Shown: positions 21,654 to 28,598 of the stretch, one piece after another | Position numbering within the stretch: the first letter of the stretch is position 1 | Layout of the letters: each line of letters opens with the position of its first letter | NCBI GenBank assembly: GCA_050250645.1 | Contig: JBFWOG010000017.1 | Location: 49,006-113,005 of the forward strand | DNA from: Vicinamibacterales bacterium | GTDB lineage: Bacteria > Acidobacteriota > Vicinamibacteria > Vicinamibacterales > UBA2999 | Direction: 5' to 3' | DNA length: 64,000 nucleotides | The notes under the pieces: generated by a model | The model's input: the letters and a program-made list of their open reading frames with translations, nothing else | What the model was told of the DNA's origin: nothing | Databases searched by the model: none | Made by a program: the position numbers and the translations under genes

Positions 21654-22541
21654 TCAGCGCCCGGGGCCGCCGCGCGCCAGGGCGGCCAGTTCGGCGCGGC
21701 CGATCCGCACCTGCTGCGCATCGGTCACGAACGGGCTCACGTCAACGGCATGGCCGCCGAGCGTGAGCTCGACGCGGTCGCCGATGCCCACCGCGAGGTA
21801 GATCGGCACGCCGGTCAGGTCGAGTGCCTGCCCTGGCTGCAGGACGCGCTCGACGGTGTCGTTGTTGGCGTAGCGCACGAAGACCCAGGTGGCCCGCCCG
21901 ACCGACACGCGGCCAGCCGCGCCCGATGACACGCTCGCCGGCACCGGGACGGCGGCCGGCGGAGCCGCCACGGCCGCCACGGCGGCGACGTCGGCCACGT
22001 ACCGATCCGGCGCCACCGCCGCGCGCAGTTCGTCGAACGGCGCCAGCGACTGGACGACGAGGGGGGCGGGCGCGACAGGTGGCGCCACATCGGCTGCGGC
22101 CGGGGCGGCGCCAGGGCTGTCGTAGAAGTAGCTGACGCCGACGAGCGCCAGCCCGGCGACGGCCATGGCGGCGAGCAGCCACGTCCGCCCGGACACCGGC
22201 GCGCGGGCCGCGGCGGGCCGCTCGACGGCCGCGGGCGCGGCATCGTCGCGCCCCGGGATGGCCAGCATCCGCTCGAACAGCGGCTCCGACAGCCCCCCCA
22301 CACCGACGAACTCGACGTACTTCTGCAGCCCCTTCACGAAGTACGGCTCGCCGTAGAACGCCGTCGGGTCCGGCTGCTCGAGCGCGCGCACCTGGCGGGG
22401 CGACAGCAACAAGCGCTCGGCCACCTGGTCGATCGTCAGTTCGCGGTCGGCCCGCGCCTTCGACAGCAAGGCCCCCAGCTCGGCCGCAAAGCCGAGATCG
22501 ATGGTCGAGCCACGCGTCTCCGCACCGGGGAAGGAGGGCAC
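21654..22541 (-). CDS. RodZ-like protein (XRE HTH, TM, DUF4115-like C-terminus)
   Basis: LGALLSKARADRELTIDQVAERLLLS..ALE..YFVKG..KY; single TM; WVFVR..VLQPGQ. Confidence 0.8.
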   Translation of the reverse strand: MPSFPGAETRGSTIDLGFAAELGALLSKARADRELTIDQVAERLLLSPRQVRALEQPDPTAFYGEPYFVKGLQKYVEFVGVGGLSEPLFERMLAIPGRDDAAPAAVERPAAARAPVSGRTWLLAAMAVAGLALVGVSYFYDSPGAAPAAADVAPPVAPAPLVVQSLAPFDELRAAVAPDRYVADVAAVAAVAAPPAAVPVPASVSSGAAGRVSVGRATWVFVRYANNDTVERVLQPGQALDLTGVPIYLAVGIGDRVELTLGGHAVDVSPFVTDAQQVRIGRAELAALARGGPGR

Positions 22542-22643
22542 GGGACGATCCTACGCATTTCCGGCGCCGAATGCGCGCCCATCGATCGCGGCCCGGCAAA
22601 AATCCCCGAGCGGCTCAGCTCACCTCCGCGCCGGAGACACAGC

Positions 22644-23453
22644 TCAGCGCGCGCCAGGCAGGCGGTAGTGCCACACGCGCGACCGCGCGAAGACCGCCAC
22701 CCCCTGCCCGCCAGGCAGCGCCTCCAGCCCGAACGCCTGCTCGTCGGCGACGTCCTCGTAGAGGAGCCGGCCATCCCCGCTGTAGACGAACAGCGCGTGG
22801 TACGGCACGTAGCCGTTGCCCGAGGCGAGGAGCACGAGCCGCCCGCCGACGGTCGTGGCGAACAGGTCCGTGAAGAAGCTGCCCTCGGGCGCGCCGAGCC
22901 GCGCCAGGGGCGCGCCCATGGGCGAGCGGACGACCAGGTCGTCGCCCTGCAGGTACACGAGGGCCGGGTCGCCCTGCCAGGCCGCGACAGCGAAGTGACT
23001 CGGCGGCGGCGACTCGCTCCACGTGGCGACCAGGGCGTCACCAGGCGTGCGCACCTCGAACGTCCCGCCACCCGTCGCGTCGGGATAGAGGTAGAGCGCC
23101 AGGTCCCGCTTCGGCGCGCGCGAGGCCGGCACGAGGGCCATGGCCGTCAGGTAGCCGTCGGTCGCGAGGCGCGCCTGCACGGCGCCGGCGGCGTCACGCA
23201 CCTCGACGCCAGCCCCGCCGGCCAGCGCCGCCACGGTTTCCGGCGCCTCGTCGCCGAGCACGTCGCCGTGCTCGACGCGCACCACCGCGTCCGGGGCCTC
23301 GAAGCCGCGCCGGGCGACGTCGGGCGGCGCGGGGCCGGCGTCGGACTTCTCGACGCCGGCCGAGTTGACGAGCTCGCCGAGGCGCGCGGGCGCCTGCCCG
23401 CACGCCCCGCACAGCCCCGCCGCCACCAGCGCCACGGCGAGCCCCCCGCGCAC
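22644..23453 (-). CDS. Putative lipoprotein of unknown function (start uncertain: 23453/23480/23489)
   Basis: Hydrophobic N-terminus ending AGLCGAC-GQ (lipobox-like); starts 4 nt after the upstream stop. Confidence 0.7.
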   Translation of the reverse strand: MRGGLAVALVAAGLCGACGQAPARLGELVNSAGVEKSDAGPAPPDVARRGFEAPDAVVRVEHGDVLGDEAPETVAALAGGAGVEVRDAAGAVQARLATDGYLTAMALVPASRAPKRDLALYLYPDATGGGTFEVRTPGDALVATWSESPPPSHFAVAAWQGDPALVYLQGDDLVVRSPMGAPLARLGAPEGSFFTDLFATTVGGRLVLLASGNGYVPYHALFVYSGDGRLLYEDVADEQAFGLEALPGGQGVAVFARSRVWHYRLPGAR

Positions 23454-23457
23454 GCAC

Positions 23458-24663
23458 TCAGATATACGGTCCGGTTCCATCCCCACCACCGATCGTCTCG
23501 AAGCAGAACACCGCGCTCATGTTGCACGAGACGCACTGCCACGCCTGTCCCCACGGCCAGAACCACGAATAGCGATTGCAGCCGTACGTGTTGTAGCAGT
23601 TGTCGTGCTGATCGCAGCACGCGCGGAAGATGGTGCCGTCGAGCCAGTGCAATCCCGTGCAGCCGTCCTGGGCCTGCAGGGTCGGGACAATGGCCTGGAC
23701 GACGCGCTCGACGAGCCCGGGCCGCTGGTCGAGCCGCACGCCGGGGGGCGGCTGGCGACGCGGCAGTTCGTAGAAGGCGAAGGCCTGCATGTTGACCCAG
23801 GCCATGTCCGGCGTGAAGGGCCAGCCGCCGATTTCACCCAGGCGCCCCGGCGTCAGGTACCCCGTCGTCCCGCCCGGGAAGTGCCAGGCCAGCACCCGCG
23901 TGTTCTGGTGCCAGCGCACCCACCCGATCTCGACGCCGTCGCGGAGGAGGACGCTCGAGAACGAGATGATGGCGCCCGACTTCGCGCGGGCCGCGGCGCG
24001 CGAGGCGGGCCGTCGCGCAATGGCGGTGAGCCCGCCGGCGAACTCGGTCCGCACCTCCACGATGTGGGCATCGATGTCCGCCAGGCCGGCCCGGTCGGGC
24101 CGGACGAGGTTCCGCCGCCAGCGGACGCTCGAACCCGGCACGCCCGCGGCCTGGTTGACGCCGTCCTTGACGAACGCGTAGGCCTGCCGCGCCGCCCAGT
24201 CGAGCGTGGGTGCCAGTTCGGCCCGGCCGGGGGCGCGCACGAGCGGGGCGCCGGGCGCGCGGAACTCGAGCCAGGTGCCGGCCGCGGCGTCGCGCGTCGC
24301 CACGAACGTGCCCAGGTCGTTCCCCAGCCGGTCGGTCATCCGCGTCCGGATCCCTCCATCGGCCCGCCGCTCGTTCACGGCCACCGCGTCGTCGAACGTC
24401 GTCTCGACGCGCGTCGCCTGCCCCTCGAGGCCGTTGTAGGTCGCCCCCTTGTCGAGCGCCGCGCTGACCGGCACGTCGGCCCCGAGCCGCAGGACCGTGC
24501 GCAACGCGTCCGGGTTGAGCCGCGGCACCTCCCTCGCCGGCGCCGCCTGCGGCCGCGCCCCCGCGCGAGCCGCCCAGCCCCCCGCCACGGTCGGCCCGCC
24601 CGCCGCGAACACCACACCCACCGCAATCGCCAGCCAACAGCCACGCCTGGTTCGGTCGCGCAT
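23458..24663 (-). CDS. Secreted protein with C-terminal Cys-rich sPLA2-like domain
   Basis: RBS GGAGGGAGG; signal peptide; C-terminal DGCTG..CCDQHDNCY..CVSCNMSAVFCF. Confidence 0.8.
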   Translation of the reverse strand: MRDRTRRGCWLAIAVGVVFAAGGPTVAGGWAARAGARPQAAPAREVPRLNPDALRTVLRLGADVPVSAALDKGATYNGLEGQATRVETTFDDAVAVNERRADGGIRTRMTDRLGNDLGTFVATRDAAAGTWLEFRAPGAPLVRAPGRAELAPTLDWAARQAYAFVKDGVNQAAGVPGSSVRWRRNLVRPDRAGLADIDAHIVEVRTEFAGGLTAIARRPASRAAARAKSGAIISFSSVLLRDGVEIGWVRWHQNTRVLAWHFPGGTTGYLTPGRLGEIGGWPFTPDMAWVNMQAFAFYELPRRQPPPGVRLDQRPGLVERVVQAIVPTLQAQDGCTGLHWLDGTIFRACCDQHDNCYNTYGCNRYSWFWPWGQAWQCVSCNMSAVFCFETIGGGDGTGPYI

Positions 24664-24913
24664 GGCGCCTCCCTCCGGGCACACGTCCCGGCGGTGCGTG
24701 GCAGACCCACGCACCGGATCGTGGAGGCTCCTGACCCAGGCCGCTTCGACGAATGCCTGGCGCCTTTCAAGGTCCCTGCCAGCGGAGGGAGAAGGGATTG
24801 GCCGCGTTCACGCGGCGCACCCTGACGCCGAGCGCCGGCGCCCGCCAGTTCGGCGCACACCGGTGCCCGTGGGGCGAGGAAGGGGCTACCCGCTACCCCG
24901 GACGCCCCCGCGC

Positions 24914-27900
24914 CTACTGGTCGCGCGCGCCGCCCGCCGGCAGCGTCACCCGGGGCACGCTCGCGGGCGCCCGCCGCTCCAGGTCCGCCGCGAACGCCGA
25001 CACCGTCGTCGTGAGCACGCGCCGCACCTCGGCCAGCCGGTCCGGCACGCGCGCCGCCCCGCGCGAGAACTGCAGGGCCTGCGCCGGCGTCGGCGCGTCG
25101 CTCGACGATGCGACGTCGCGCGCCGCCCCGCTGGCCTGCTGCAGCGCGCGCCCGAGGCGCGTCTGCGCCTGGCGCAGCGCCTTCGTGGCCGCGTCGCCGG
25201 CGGCCTTCAGGTCGTCCGGGACGTCGGACGCGGCGCCGAGCGCCCGGGTCGCCGCGCCCAGTTGCTTCAGGACGTCGGCAACCTCCTGCTGGACCGGATA
25301 TACCTGCTTCTGCAGGTCGTACAGCCGGAACAGCAGGTCGAACCGCGCCTGGCGCGACTCGTCGGACACCGCGACGCGGGGATCACCCGAGACCACGAGG
25401 CGCGCGCGCTGCTCCACGCCGGCCGCGCGCAGGGTCACGACGTATTCACCGGGCAGCACCTCCGGGCCCTCGGGCGCGCGGCGGGGCTCGCCGGCCTCGC
25501 CGCCCGTCGGGTCGCCACCGCCGCCGAAGTCCCCGGGCACGCGTGCCTTCGTGCTCTCGGCCGGGCGCGGGTCCCCGGGGACCACGCCGGCCGGCGGATC
25601 GGCGCGCGGCGGCGCGGGCGGCGCCTCGTAGCGCAGGTCCCACACGACACGGTGCAGGCCGGCGCCGGCCGGCGCGTCGATCTCGCGCACCACCGTCCCG
25701 TCACGGCCGGCAATCACGAGCCGGGCCCCGCCGGCCGCCTCACGCAGCCAGTAGTCGATGGCCGCGCCGTAGGGCGGGTTGGCCCCCACATAGGTCGCCT
25801 GGGCGAGGAAGTCGCGGTGTTCGAGGTAATTGAACGCCGTGGCCCGCGCGGGCGTGAACAGGTGCGCGGCCGAGGCCGCCACCTCCGTTGTCAGGGCCTC
25901 GAGCGCGGCGATGGGGACGATGTAGATGCTGCGCCCGTGCGTGCCGACGATGAGGTCCCGATCCCGCGGGTGTATCCGGAGGTCGTAGACCGGCACGTCG
26001 GGGAGCCCGCCGCCCACCTTCGACCACGACGTCCCGCCGTCGGCCGACGCCCAGAGCCCGTTCTCGAGGCCGGCGAAGAGCAGCTCCGGGTTCCGCGGGT
26101 CCTCGATCATCGTGCGGACGACGCTGTCGAGCCCGCTGGTCACCGCGCGCCAGGTCGCGCCGCCGTCGTCGCTCCGGAAGAGGTGCGGCGCGAGGTCGTC
26201 CAGCTGGTGGCCGTCGAAGGCGACGAACATGCGCGCGGGGTCGTGGGCCGAGAGCGCGACGTGGCTCACGGGCGTCCGCTCGCGGATGCCCGCGAAGCGG
26301 CCCGAGATCTCCGTCCAGCTCACGCCGCCGTCAGTGGACAGCTGCACGTTGCCGTCGTCGGTGCCGACGACGAGCAGGCCCGGGTCGATCGGCGACTCGG
26401 CAAAGGCCGTCGCGGTGCCGTAGGCGTCGACGCCGTCGTGCTTCGAGAGGGTGTCGCCGTCGGGGACGCGCCCCATGATGGGCAGGGTGTTCCTGTCGAT
26501 CTGCCTGGTGAGATCCGGCGACACGGGCCGCCAGTGCTCCCCGCGATCGAGCGAGCGCCAGAGCCGGTTGCCCGCGATGTACAGCGTGCGCGGGTTGTGC
26601 GTGGAGACGGCCAGCGGCGACGTCCAGTAGAAGCGCGTGGCGTCAGGCAGCTCGGGCTGGCCGGCCTCCGGCGGGTCGGCGTCCTCGTTCGGGTCGGGCT
26701 CGTACGGGCGGATGCCGCGCCGCTCGCCCGACGCCGTGTCGAAGCGCATCGCGCGCCCGTTCTGCGTGGACACGTAGGCGGTGCCCGGGTCGAGCGGGTC
26801 CGGCGCCACCGACATGCCGTCGCCGCCGGCCACCTGGATCCAGTCGTCGTCGAGCGGCCCGACGCGGTTCCACGTGGCGCTCGGTCCCGCCCAGACGCCG
26901 TTGTCCTGGAGCCCGCCGTACAGCCGGTATGGGCGGCCCATGTCGGCGCCGACGGTGTAGAACTGCCCGAGCGGGATGTTGTTGACACGCTGCCAGGTCA
27001 GGGCGGCGTCACGCGACATGAAGACGCCGCCGTCGTTGCCGAGCACCAGGTGCGCCGGATCGCGCGGGTCGATCCAGAGGGCGTGGTGGTCGACATGGAC
27101 GTTGCGGGCGCCGTCGCTCCTGAACGTCCTGCCGCCATCGTCGGACACGTAGAGCGGGGCCGCGAGGAGGTACACGCGCTGGTCGTTCGACGGGTCGACC
27201 CGGATGTGGCTGAAGTACATCGGGCGGGGATTCAGGCTGTTCACCTTCGTCCAGGTCCGCCCGCGATCGGCCGAGCGGTAGACCCCGCCGGCGCTCTTGT
27301 GCTCGACCGTCGCATAGACGATCGCCGGGTTCTTCCGGAAGACATCGATGCCGATCTTGCCGAGGTCGCCCGCCGGCAGGCCGCCGCCCAGCCGGGTCCA
27401 GGTGCGCGCGCCGTCGGTGGTCTTGTAGAGGCCGCTGCCGGGCCCGCCGCCGGAGAACCCCCAGGCCGTCCGCCGGCGCTGGTAGGCGGCGGCGTAGAGC
27501 ACCCGCGGGTTCGACGGGTCCATCACGACGTCGGTGAACCCGGTGTCCTCGTCGATGAACTTGGTGTTCGTCCACGTGCGGCCGCCGTCGGTCGTCTTGA
27601 ACAGCCCGCGCTCCGCGTTGGGCCCCCAGAGGTGGCCGAGGGCCGCGACGTAGACCACGTCGGGGTCACGCGGGTCGATCGCGATGCCGCCGACGTGTCG
27701 GCTGTCGGCGAGCCCCATGTGCTGCCAGGTCGCGCCGGCGTCGGTGGACTTCCAGACGCCGTTGCCCCACGACGAACTCTGGCGGTTGTTCGATTCCCCC
27801 GTGCCGACCCAGACCACCGCCGGGTTGGAGCGCGAGACCGCGATGGCCCCGATCGAGGTCGTGCCCTTGTCGTCGAAGACCGGCGCCCAGGTCGTGCCGC

Positions 27901-28090
27901 CGTTCTCCGTCTTCCACACCCCGCCGGTCGCCGCGCCGATGTAGATGACGTCGGGGTCCGACTCGACCGCCGCGATCGTCTCGACGCGCCCGCCCATGAT
28001 GGCGGGCCCGACGTTGCGGGCCGGGATGGTGTCGAACTGGGCAGGGGCGGCGGTCAGGGCGAGGGCGAGGAGGAGGGAGGCGATCGGCAT
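24914..28090 (-). CDS. VPS10/sortilin-like BNR (Asp-box) repeat beta-propeller protein, exported
   Basis: RNVGPAIMGGRV, GGVWKTENGGTTW, many S/T-D-G-G-x-T-W boxes, HVDHHALWIDP, GGLQDNG, VGTHGRSIY. Confidence 0.92.
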   Translation of the reverse strand: MPIASLLLALALTAAPAQFDTIPARNVGPAIMGGRVETIAAVESDPDVIYIGAATGGVWKTENGGTTWAPVFDDKGTTSIGAIAVSRSNPAVVWVGTGESNNRQSSSWGNGVWKSTDAGATWQHMGLADSRHVGGIAIDPRDPDVVYVAALGHLWGPNAERGLFKTTDGGRTWTNTKFIDEDTGFTDVVMDPSNPRVLYAAAYQRRRTAWGFSGGGPGSGLYKTTDGARTWTRLGGGLPAGDLGKIGIDVFRKNPAIVYATVEHKSAGGVYRSADRGRTWTKVNSLNPRPMYFSHIRVDPSNDQRVYLLAAPLYVSDDGGRTFRSDGARNVHVDHHALWIDPRDPAHLVLGNDGGVFMSRDAALTWQRVNNIPLGQFYTVGADMGRPYRLYGGLQDNGVWAGPSATWNRVGPLDDDWIQVAGGDGMSVAPDPLDPGTAYVSTQNGRAMRFDTASGERRGIRPYEPDPNEDADPPEAGQPELPDATRFYWTSPLAVSTHNPRTLYIAGNRLWRSLDRGEHWRPVSPDLTRQIDRNTLPIMGRVPDGDTLSKHDGVDAYGTATAFAESPIDPGLLVVGTDDGNVQLSTDGGVSWTEISGRFAGIRERTPVSHVALSAHDPARMFVAFDGHQLDDLAPHLFRSDDGGATWRAVTSGLDSVVRTMIEDPRNPELLFAGLENGLWASADGGTSWSKVGGGLPDVPVYDLRIHPRDRDLIVGTHGRSIYIVPIAALEALTTEVAASAAHLFTPARATAFNYLEHRDFLAQATYVGANPPYGAAIDYWLREAAGGARLVIAGRDGTVVREIDAPAGAGLHRVVWDLRYEAPPAPPRADPPAGVVPGDPRPAESTKARVPGDFGGGGDPTGGEAGEPRRAPEGPEVLPGEYVVTLRAAGVEQRARLVVSGDPRVAVSDESRQARFDLLFRLYDLQKQVYPVQQEVADVLKQLGAATRALGAASDVPDDLKAAGDAATKALRQAQTRLGRALQQASGAARDVASSSDAPTPAQALQFSRGAARVPDRLAEVRRVLTTTVSAFAADLERRAPASVPRVTLPAGGARDQ

Positions 28091-28094
28091 GGGC

Positions 28095-28195
28095 CACAGA
28101 TAACACAGATGCACAGATAAGAGGGAGATGCACAGATGGACACAGATGCACAGATGGGACGCAGATGCACAGATACGAGGCAGGTGCACGGACCG
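28095..28195 (+). repeat. (G)CACAGAT-type 8-11-nt degenerate tandem array
   Basis: CACAGAT AACACAGAT GCACAGAT ... GCACAGAT GGACACAGAT GCACAGAT; related arrays at 34070-34345. Confidence 0.9.
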
Positions 28196-28598
28196 ATTCA
28201 CGGACGGGCCGCGGATGCGCCGATGGCGCTGGCGGGGCACGGATGCCTCTTGTCAACGCCCAGGGTCGCGGGTAAACTCGGTGGCGTGACAGCCTGGTCG
28301 GGGTCTCGCCCCGGTCTGCCCACATCCGGCATGGCACCGACGCCTCCGTCCATGGACGGCGTCTCGCGCCACGCCCGCTCCCGCACACTCGATCGCGAGC
28401 GACGGCTCTCCACGCGACGCGCCCGGCCGGGCTGCTCGCGGTCGTAGCACCACCACCCACCTCCCCCATGTTGACGGCACGCGTCCTCGACGCCGGCAGG
28501 CGCCCGGCCGCGCGTCATCCGCCCCCGGGCGCGCCATGCCGGCTCCGTTCGCGCACCGAGATCCCGAGTTCCAACGACGCTTACATGCGAGGGTGGGT

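Follow-up and report, generated by a model that had tools for sequence, protein, structure and literature searches.

The window, a stretch of 64,000 nucleotides from an uncultured Vicinamibacterales bacterium, carries on its minus strand a 401-residue open reading frame (P0001) with an ATG at 24663 and a TGA at 23460-23458, followed by a gene for a predicted lipoprotein (Table 1). The gene is single-copy in its genome of 5.2 Mb, which is scored 100% complete. The last 70 residues (332-401) are the exact translation of 23461-23670 on the minus strand, the Trp-rich, eight-cysteine peptide that a sequence-only reading had placed at the C-terminal tip of the protein. This tip consists of a core of 61 residues and a Gly-rich tail of the final nine. 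The core has cysteines at positions 335, 349, 350, 356, 362, 377, 380 and 387 and five Trp residues, and it contains both CCxxHDxCY and CxxCN. CCxxHDxC[YF] has a chance expectation of 0.0013 by composition in the six-frame open reading frames of the genome, and a single copy of C..HD.C[YF] is present in the six frames. The stretch 22400-24950 is unbroken on one contig of run X1, a possible source of this DNA, and is found also on two overlapping, near-identical X3 contigs; mis-assembly is therefore unlikely. Its best DNA matches are landfill metagenomes, which may include the sample of origin, and no match is listed for it in the RNA data sets. The locus is flanked upstream by a gene for a large BNR/Sortilin-Vps10 beta-propeller protein (24914-28240, minus strand) and downstream by a RodZ-like gene with HTH_25 and RodZ_C (21654-22541, minus strand), and both flanks recur in one other locus (L001).

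Table 1. Positions of the features at the locus, in window coordinates.
Feature	Position	Strand	Remarks
401-residue ORF (P0001)	23458..24663	-	Predicted signal peptide, duplicated carrier, linker helix, PLA2-like tip
Predicted Sec-type signal peptide, ~residues 1-31	24571..24663	-	Arg-rich start, then hydrophobic stretch; model helix 2-21
Carrier repeat 1, residues 72-176	24136..24450	-	Beta-meander and W-x-x-x-Q helix; strands 83-145, helix 154-166 (model)
Carrier repeat 2, residues 196-305	23749..24078	-	Ends in conserved GGWxFxPxxAWxNxQ helix
Linker helix ending PTLQA	23671..23715	-	317-325 in model
sPLA2-like tip core, residues 332-392	23488..23670	-	8 Cys; helices 347-360 and 375-391
His353-Asp354, predicted catalytic His and Ca2+-binding Asp	23602..23607	-	His48/Asp49 equivalents
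Asn381, position of relay Asp99	23521..23523	-	Register from snake PLA2 alignment
Partner (family C), beta-rich predicted lipoprotein, candidate immunity protein	22644..23453	-	Likely GTG start 23453
Sigma-54-like -24/-12 site, TGGCA-N6-TTGA, non-canonical -12	24767..24781	-	104 nt upstream of start

The two helices of the tip are present in both structure models (tip alone, pLDDT 74; full length, 85). A Foldseek search with the tip returned 16 matches at E <=10, none of them significant, of which 13 are sPLA2s, and the first match is the rice group XI PLA2 (PDB 2wg8). Where the sequence-only reading expected an sPLA2 helical hairpin, the models have a pair of helices with mostly sPLA2s as matches, but the best E value is 3.7. 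A wide VIA search gave three sPLA2s at Z 3.3-3.4 with 60-61 residues aligned, tied with unrelated helical hairpins; their identities of 17-23% are the highest among the 50 rows. With the full model, VIA placed the Tuber PLA2 (4aup) on residues 330-401 (Z 4.3, rmsd 3.1, 61 residues). Leads from Atlas, below its bar, are clusters of PF00068, PF06951 and PF09056. The tip profile matched only two sequences in the PDB, at E 0.7 and 8.8, and each is a chain of the snake PLA2 type; in the alignment to one of them (3v9m), CCxxHDxCY coincides with its counterpart, and C380-N381...C387-F388 falls on the second-helix C-D...C-F, in agreement with the earlier proposal that the second-helix Asp is replaced. 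PLA2G12 (PF06951) is the sole Pfam family touching the tip, but at E 0.031 and 14.7 bits it stays below the cut-off of 34. This match covers only the His-Asp helix and is found at E<=0.1 in one of 138 family members; one RHS-borne relative reaches E 0.0033, and scores here range from 14.7 to 17.8 bits. Pfam scans gave no match to PF09056, NCBIfam and PHROGs gave none for the protein, and the family is without a Pfam or NCBIfam model. No single match to a PLA2 in Pfam, Foldseek, the PDB profile search or VIA is significant by itself. The core is also short, 61 residues compared with 120-135 in venom sPLA2s, and the N-terminal helix and beta-wing are missing. Several weak lines agree, none strong alone, and a minimal sPLA2 fold is very likely for the tip. 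Parvoviral group XIII PLA2 domains, which the available text of PMC9505059 describes as stripped-down cores without cysteines, can be regarded as a precedent for reduced PLA2 cores.

The active site of sPLA2s, with the pair His48/Asp99, Asp49 and the Ca2+ loop, is described in the available part of PMC10150362. At the predicted equivalent positions of the tip, an alignment of 155 rows selected by tip match has Cys349, Cys350, His353 and Asp354 each in 153 rows and Cys356 and Tyr/Phe357 each in 154, and Asn381 is present in all 149 rows reaching that position. Since this set was tip-selected, conservation was retested on loci found by the carrier alone. A carrier-pattern search yielded 97 metagenome stretches, of which 80 were kept, 77 complete and three cut by contig ends. 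CC..HD.C[YF] and C..CN are intact in the same open reading frame in 77 of the 77 complete loci, so the His-Asp signature recognised from the sequence holds where the tip was not used for selection. The canonical Y-C-G-x-G Ca2+ loop is absent from the tip. Gly334-Cys335 is found in 144 of 147 rows and Gly337 in 90 of 147. Among 143 homologs, 38 have only Asp333, 96 only Asp336, two both and seven neither, so that 136 of the 143 have an Asp flanking Cys335. The DGC Asp, taken earlier as a mark of the Ca2+ loop, is there in DGCT of the window protein, but Asp333 is found in just 40 of 143 homologs and alternates with Asp336. On a tree built from the carrier only, the alternation runs in the same direction in about six of six independent pairs (p 0.03-0.06). 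The alternating residues may represent a required acidic Ca2+ ligand; swapping of tip subtypes among carriers would also yield the pattern.

These residues bear on the question of whether the tip is an enzyme. Instead of an enzyme, the tip could be a PLA2-like scaffold without catalysis, or a disulfide-rich helical hairpin unrelated to PLA2, whose Trp-rich surface binds membranes, metal or a receptor. This would agree with the weak fold scores, the Asn in place of Asp and the missing N-terminal helix, and also with the near-invariant residues of the carrier-borne form that have no sPLA2 counterpart (His339, Trp340, Asp342, Arg347, Ser366, Trp367 and Trp375). However, His353-Asp354-x-Cys-Tyr/Phe and Asn381 are conserved in both carrier-borne and RHS-borne tips, while the LHWLD segment is lost from the RHS-borne ones, and an Asp is kept beside Cys335 in nearly all homologs. 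We regard a non-catalytic tip as a rather remote alternative, and the tip is probably an active enzyme. The tip is better conserved than the carrier (57% vs. 32%, in a homolog set partly found by the tip). An additional Cys-rich tail follows it in 58 of 86 homologs, with CPxxCxxC in 32. A few homologs (among P0016, P0046 and P0054) extend into a further domain, with EF-hand-like matches in P0046.

Comparison with the known sPLA2 groups places the tip near several of them. It shares with plant group XI (rice PLA2, 2wg8; the best, though weak, Foldseek match) the CCxxHDxC site and a relay Asp changed to Asn, His or Ser, a replacement of Asp99 described for plant sPLA2s in the accessible text of PMC6635587. 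Unlike the group XI enzymes as presented there, the tip is without the YGKYCGxxxxGC loop, is about half their size and comes with a bacterial carrier and a partner gene. With the group I/II animal enzymes (3v9m) it shares, in register, CC-x-x-H-D-x-C-Y of helix one and C-[D/N]-x5-C-F of helix two. It differs from them, as described in the available part of PMC10150362, in the absence of the N-terminal helix and beta-wing, in Asn for Asp99 and in four predicted disulfides rather than six to eight; just 20 residues lie between C356 and C377. The likeness to group XII is the sub-threshold PF06951 match. The DxC start resembles that of group XIV (Tuber borchii, 4aup, PF09056), a group with a different cysteine frame.

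Export of the 401-residue protein is predicted from its positively charged, hydrophobic N-terminus alone. A hydrophobic N-terminal stretch is found in 72 of 86 homologs, and a simple heuristic detected a lipobox-like motif in none of the 86. The carrier is an internal duplication of a beta-meander/helix module in a high-confidence model; comparison of repeat 1 with repeat 2 gave an HHalign probability of 98% (E 2.9e-13), against 0.5% for the reversed control. A single-repeat carrier was not detected in P0114, P0127, P0152, P0153 or L117. Fold searches with the full-length model showed no clear known-fold match for the carrier (Foldseek against the PDB, best E 1.7e-3, TM 0.11; viral library, best E 9.6e-4, TM 0.08; VIA, best Z 5.4 with assorted beta-barrels; Atlas, TM <=0.33 by query), and the resemblance to LolA/LolB/RseB folds is weak. 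Because the carrier was searched within the full-length model, a known fold may still exist for it. The earlier description of a tiny disulfide-type domain on an uncharacterised carrier of predicted export agrees with these results. The PTLQA at the end of the linker might conceivably be a processing site; of 84 homologs, 36 have P-x-[LVI]-x-A. The idea that PTLQA is a signal-peptidase motif used throughout the genome found no support, as its 18 matches are scattered.

The sequence-only reading had raised the possibility of other tips on the carrier, and none were found: all 77 complete carrier-selected loci end in a PLA2-like tip, as do seven of seven further proteins checked for the carrier's tip, and a search of longer proteins, which is weak evidence, revealed no other tip. 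Among 104 genome loci, carrier and tip lie in one open reading frame in 91, and nine are split or frameshifted (L024, L035, L036, L060, L066, L067, L068, L073 and L074) and were not counted as intact; several of these come from one MAG series and may reflect sequencing errors. In L075 the tip follows a short N-terminal part unmatched by the carrier profile, L103 has a broken tip, and L104 is an RHS protein. In the sole case of its kind, a carrier stops right after repeat 2, without a tip and without a recognised partner (L102:1273-2220, G139).

The PLA2-like tip itself is found behind RHS cores that score above the TIGR03696 cut-off in five proteins (P0144, P0149, P0154, P0157 and L104), with sub-threshold RHS matches in P0148 and P0155, and on other, exported-looking N-termini unlike the carrier in P0127, P0145, P0152, P0153 and L117. 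The tip swaps carriers, and the carrier does not swap tips. Of the marks of polymorphic toxins, a toxin domain on several carriers is thus observed, and interchangeable toxins on one carrier are not (one tip in 77 of 77). A PLA2-fold C-terminal domain on RHS and other exported proteins, Tox-PLA2, is described in the accessible text of Zhang et al. 2012 (PMC3482391). The earlier label of a eukaryote-type PLA2 is right for the cysteine frame, although bacterial RHS proteins with PLA2 toxin tips were already described. Tox-PLA2 has N-terminal DxC[ST] and CxxH motifs, and the tip has DGCT and CDQH; the Asp of this DxC[ST], Asp333, is kept in the minority of homologs given above. Unlike the Tox-PLA2 motif CxxHxxxYxN of the prokaryotic/fungal 1kp4 type given in that text, the tip has CCxxHDxCY, eight cysteines and no YxN: the window protein reads H-D-N-C-Y-N-T, and the residue two after Tyr is K, A, R or T, not Asn. 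The Tox-PLA2 table in the available part of PMC3482391 lists no immunity family and no Acidobacteria. A further difference lies in the carrier, which here has two repeats, is non-filamentous and is fixed. RHS-borne relatives might be among the Tox-PLA2 members listed in the supplement of PMC3482391.

The partner gene begins, at its likely GTG, 4 nt past the stop of the PLA2-like gene; ATG 23480 and GTG 23489 are also in frame. Searches with its product in Pfam, NCBIfam, PHROGs and the PDB sequences found nothing, and a Cys after a short signal is aligned in eight of 11 family-C homologs. At 76 GTDB loci, the next same-strand gene belongs to family A in 47, to family B in 16, to family C in seven and to none of the three in six, of which one is cut by a contig end and one has another small membrane ORF. 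At 77 metagenome loci the next gene is of family A in 68, of family C in five and cut off in four. Family A is a 3-4-helix membrane protein and family B a different small membrane protein, of the Luteitalea group; they are not clearly related (HHalign probability 28%), and none of the three families has a Pfam family above the cut-off. New here, and missed in the sequence-only reading, is this partner, which is nearly always one of three unrelated membrane-protein or lipoprotein families (70 of the 76 GTDB loci). Partner type follows the tree of the PLA2-like proteins with five changes (quick tree, 66 rows). Two loci have tandem partners, L134 with A then C and L170 with two A genes. Behind the RHS-borne tip of L104 lies a fourth, lipoprotein-like neighbour; its counterpart in L103, with 53% identity, is intact although the tip before it is broken.

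The partner families were also searched apart from the PLA2-like gene. In the 401 class genomes, family A has 13 strong matches and one borderline match, and 11 of the 13 strong ones adjoin the PLA2-like gene. Of the others, one is unlinked in a genome with the PLA2-like gene elsewhere, and one is a decayed fragment in a genome without it. Because the family-A profile was built from neighbours, the informative part is the small number of matches elsewhere. Two sister genomes without an adjacent A gene, including that of L037, keep an unlinked one. Family C occurs in 14 of 371 genomes of the order, in seven behind the PLA2-like gene and in seven without one in the 1.5-kb flanks; of the unlinked matches, two are near contig ends, three are weak and one is a strong orphan (L222, from the unpublished G884), on which no conclusion depends by itself. 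No recognisable partner follows the gene at L037, L042, L049, L053 and L117, and a search covering families A and C in five genomes found neither in four of them, those of L042, L049/L053, L075 and L117. Loci without a partner occur in Thermoanaerobaculia and Multivoradales. At L039 and L098, a membrane ORF of 119 residues, unmatched by the A-C profiles, lies at the partner position 25 nt past the stop. Non-homologous, envelope-located, coupled, tandem and orphan partners are the usual genetic signature of immunity genes, and inhibition of the enzyme by the partner may be read from it. The partner-less loci and the seven of 14 family-C matches without a nearby PLA2-like gene count against this reading.

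The pair stays together in 21 upstream and 26 downstream contexts. About half of the loci (33 of 65 and 29 of 69) lie at a common place in the chromosome, between a block of comEA, prepilin, a small conserved ORF and a sigma-54 activator on one side and gcvT on the other. The upstream block, seen at L016:2845-5731 and in roughly every second family-A locus, has genes for a comEA-like protein, a prepilin-type protein, the small ORF and a sigma-54-dependent activator, and gcvT-gcvH-gcvP-like genes lie downstream; the activator is frameshifted in L016. The small ORF has only a weak TIGR02266 match and may be PilZ-like. Of 70 loci, 19 have a sigma-54-like site upstream, compared with none of the 70 on the reverse strand and 2.8% of random windows. 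Canonical sites with a constant offset are found in 14 of the 15 family-B loci, the site of the window shares its offset with that of L001, and rpoN is present in the genome. No sigma-70 promoter was found upstream of the gene. For the family-A loci, a sigma-54 motif was rejected, with 13 relaxed matches in 45 loci vs. eight on the reverse strand. Common 7-mers, CTCCGGC and GCGAGGT among them, occur upstream in about half of the family-A loci and possibly belong to a regulatory element, an RNA or, in part, the end of the activator gene.

The stable position can also be explained by an active PLA2 that remodels the lipids of the cell's own envelope or scavenges lipids, with a carrier that binds or carries lipid and a partner that serves in anchoring, regulation or uptake rather than as an antidote. 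Nearly all genomes searched have one copy of the gene, its position is stable in a large clade, the carrier is in fixed pairing with the tip, the sigma-54-like promoter is conserved in one clade, and the weak carrier likeness to LolA/LolB/RseB points the same way. However, a cooperating partner would be expected to be homologous, and at least three unrelated families that differ in topology alternate at this position, with A and B not clearly related and with tandem and orphan copies; the same tip is carried by RHS toxins, and the distribution is patchy, with the gene in 27 of 401 class genomes, patchy by family, and in two of 66 genomes of its own family. Lipid remodelling is unlikely on balance, and stays a rival owing to the single copy, the positional stability and the few partner-less loci. 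Single copy, a stable position at half of the loci and a tip more conserved than the carrier also set the gene apart from fast-turnover polymorphic toxins.

The route out of the cell was considered from the gene content of the genome. It contains no VipB match and no RHS match, and no secretin above the GspD cut-off, with secretin-like genes below it, and this counts against the reading as a toxin. Three DsbA-like genes are present. Tle enzymes of the type VI secretion system have alpha/beta-hydrolase or PLD folds and are injected by this system. The protein here, by contrast, has a signal-peptide-like start and its genome is without the VipB match. The gene order, a PLA2-like gene and then a gene for a candidate periplasm-facing immunity protein, resembles the Tle/Tli pairs as far as the available descriptions of these go. 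Likened to Tox-PLA2 and Tle/Tli, the system nevertheless departs in its sequence motifs from groups XI, XII and XIV and has no swappable tips.

Export without a contact-dependent system would also suit a secreted, venom-like PLA2 directed at eukaryotes, such as protist grazers and fungi, or at prey cells, with the partner as a droppable safeguard. The eukaryote-style cysteine frame and the partner-less loci in Thermoanaerobaculia and Multivoradales are consistent with such an enzyme. Group IIA sPLA2s are cationic and bactericidal, unlike the tip, which is acidic (mean net charge -3). SlaA, described in the available text of PMC5491884 as a bacterial PLA2 acting on host cells, is a precedent. 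However, no host link was found, and 70 of 76 GTDB loci and 73 of 77 metagenome loci have retained a partner, which suggests that the producer's own membrane is a good substrate. An enzyme against eukaryotes is a distinctly unlikely explanation.

Somewhat better than evenly supported, in our judgement, is a predicted exported His-Asn PLA2-like toxin with an immunity partner, in line with the toxin suggested from the sequence alone. This toxin-immunity reading is preferred because the same tip is found on RHS toxins, because the partners alternate and occur in tandem and as orphans, and because the pair is kept across varied flanks. In the proposed mechanism, the protein would be exported by Sec and its disulfides formed in the periplasm, as suggested by the N-terminus, the eight cysteines and the DsbA-like genes. 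Judged from the spacing and the sPLA2 numbering, the disulfides would be 335-350, 349-387 and 356-380, with an extra 362-377. The base would be His353, oriented by Asn381, a residue that some plant enzymes of group XI also have instead of Asp, and Ca2+ would be held by Asp354, loop carbonyls and the Asp flanking Cys335. The tip would then cut membrane phospholipids of neighbouring cells. The duplicated beta-meander carrier, whose fixed pairing with the tip is observed, may serve in delivery, lipid presentation or latency. The linked partner, a periplasm-facing lipoprotein in this genome and a 3-4-helix membrane protein in most relatives, would block the enzyme at the producer membrane.

A bolder form of the toxin-immunity reading is tentative and doubtful as a whole: that Vicinamibacteria use a free, Sec-exported, disulfide-bonded 'venom-type' PLA2 bacteriocin, among the smallest sPLA2 cores and with an obligatory His-Asn dyad, which is delivered or unmasked by a new two-repeat carrier and neutralised by several independently recruited immunity families. 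If it is true, small integral membrane immunity proteins would be a new class of sPLA2 inhibitor. If the toxin-immunity reading is right, Acidobacteriota, which are abundant in soils, would have a compact two-gene weapon-antidote pair, the natural minimal His-Asn sPLA2 would show which parts of the fold catalysis needs, and three or four unannotated families would be candidate natural sPLA2 inhibitors. A literature search that left most subscription journals uncovered found no paper describing the toxin-partner system.

The pair, likely a membrane-attacking toxin and its antidote, is found in many soil-type Acidobacteria. The tip search gave 148 clusters at 50% identity, and the nearest homologs are labelled Vicinamibacterales or Acidobacteriota. 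Of 76 GTDB loci, 73 are titled Acidobacteriota and the rest Bifidobacterium, Planctomycetaceae and uncultured bacterium. The carrier profile matched six of 401 phylum genomes, all within the order of the window. Searches of plasmids and phages did not reveal the tip; a viral locus (L120) was rejected as a chance 15-residue match. L029, titled Bifidobacterium, and L066, titled Planctomycetaceae, have acidobacterial-type genes, and L066 is almost identical to L067, titled Solibacteraceae; mis-binning is likely. Two further matches of the tip profile were not counted, L119, which has no tip motif, and L118 (G742:C221), an RHS protein with a different HD-type tip. The tip of L118 has C-x-x-x-H-D-x-C-Y and C-x-x-x-C-N and possibly belongs to another bacterial His-Asn PLA2-like toxin family.
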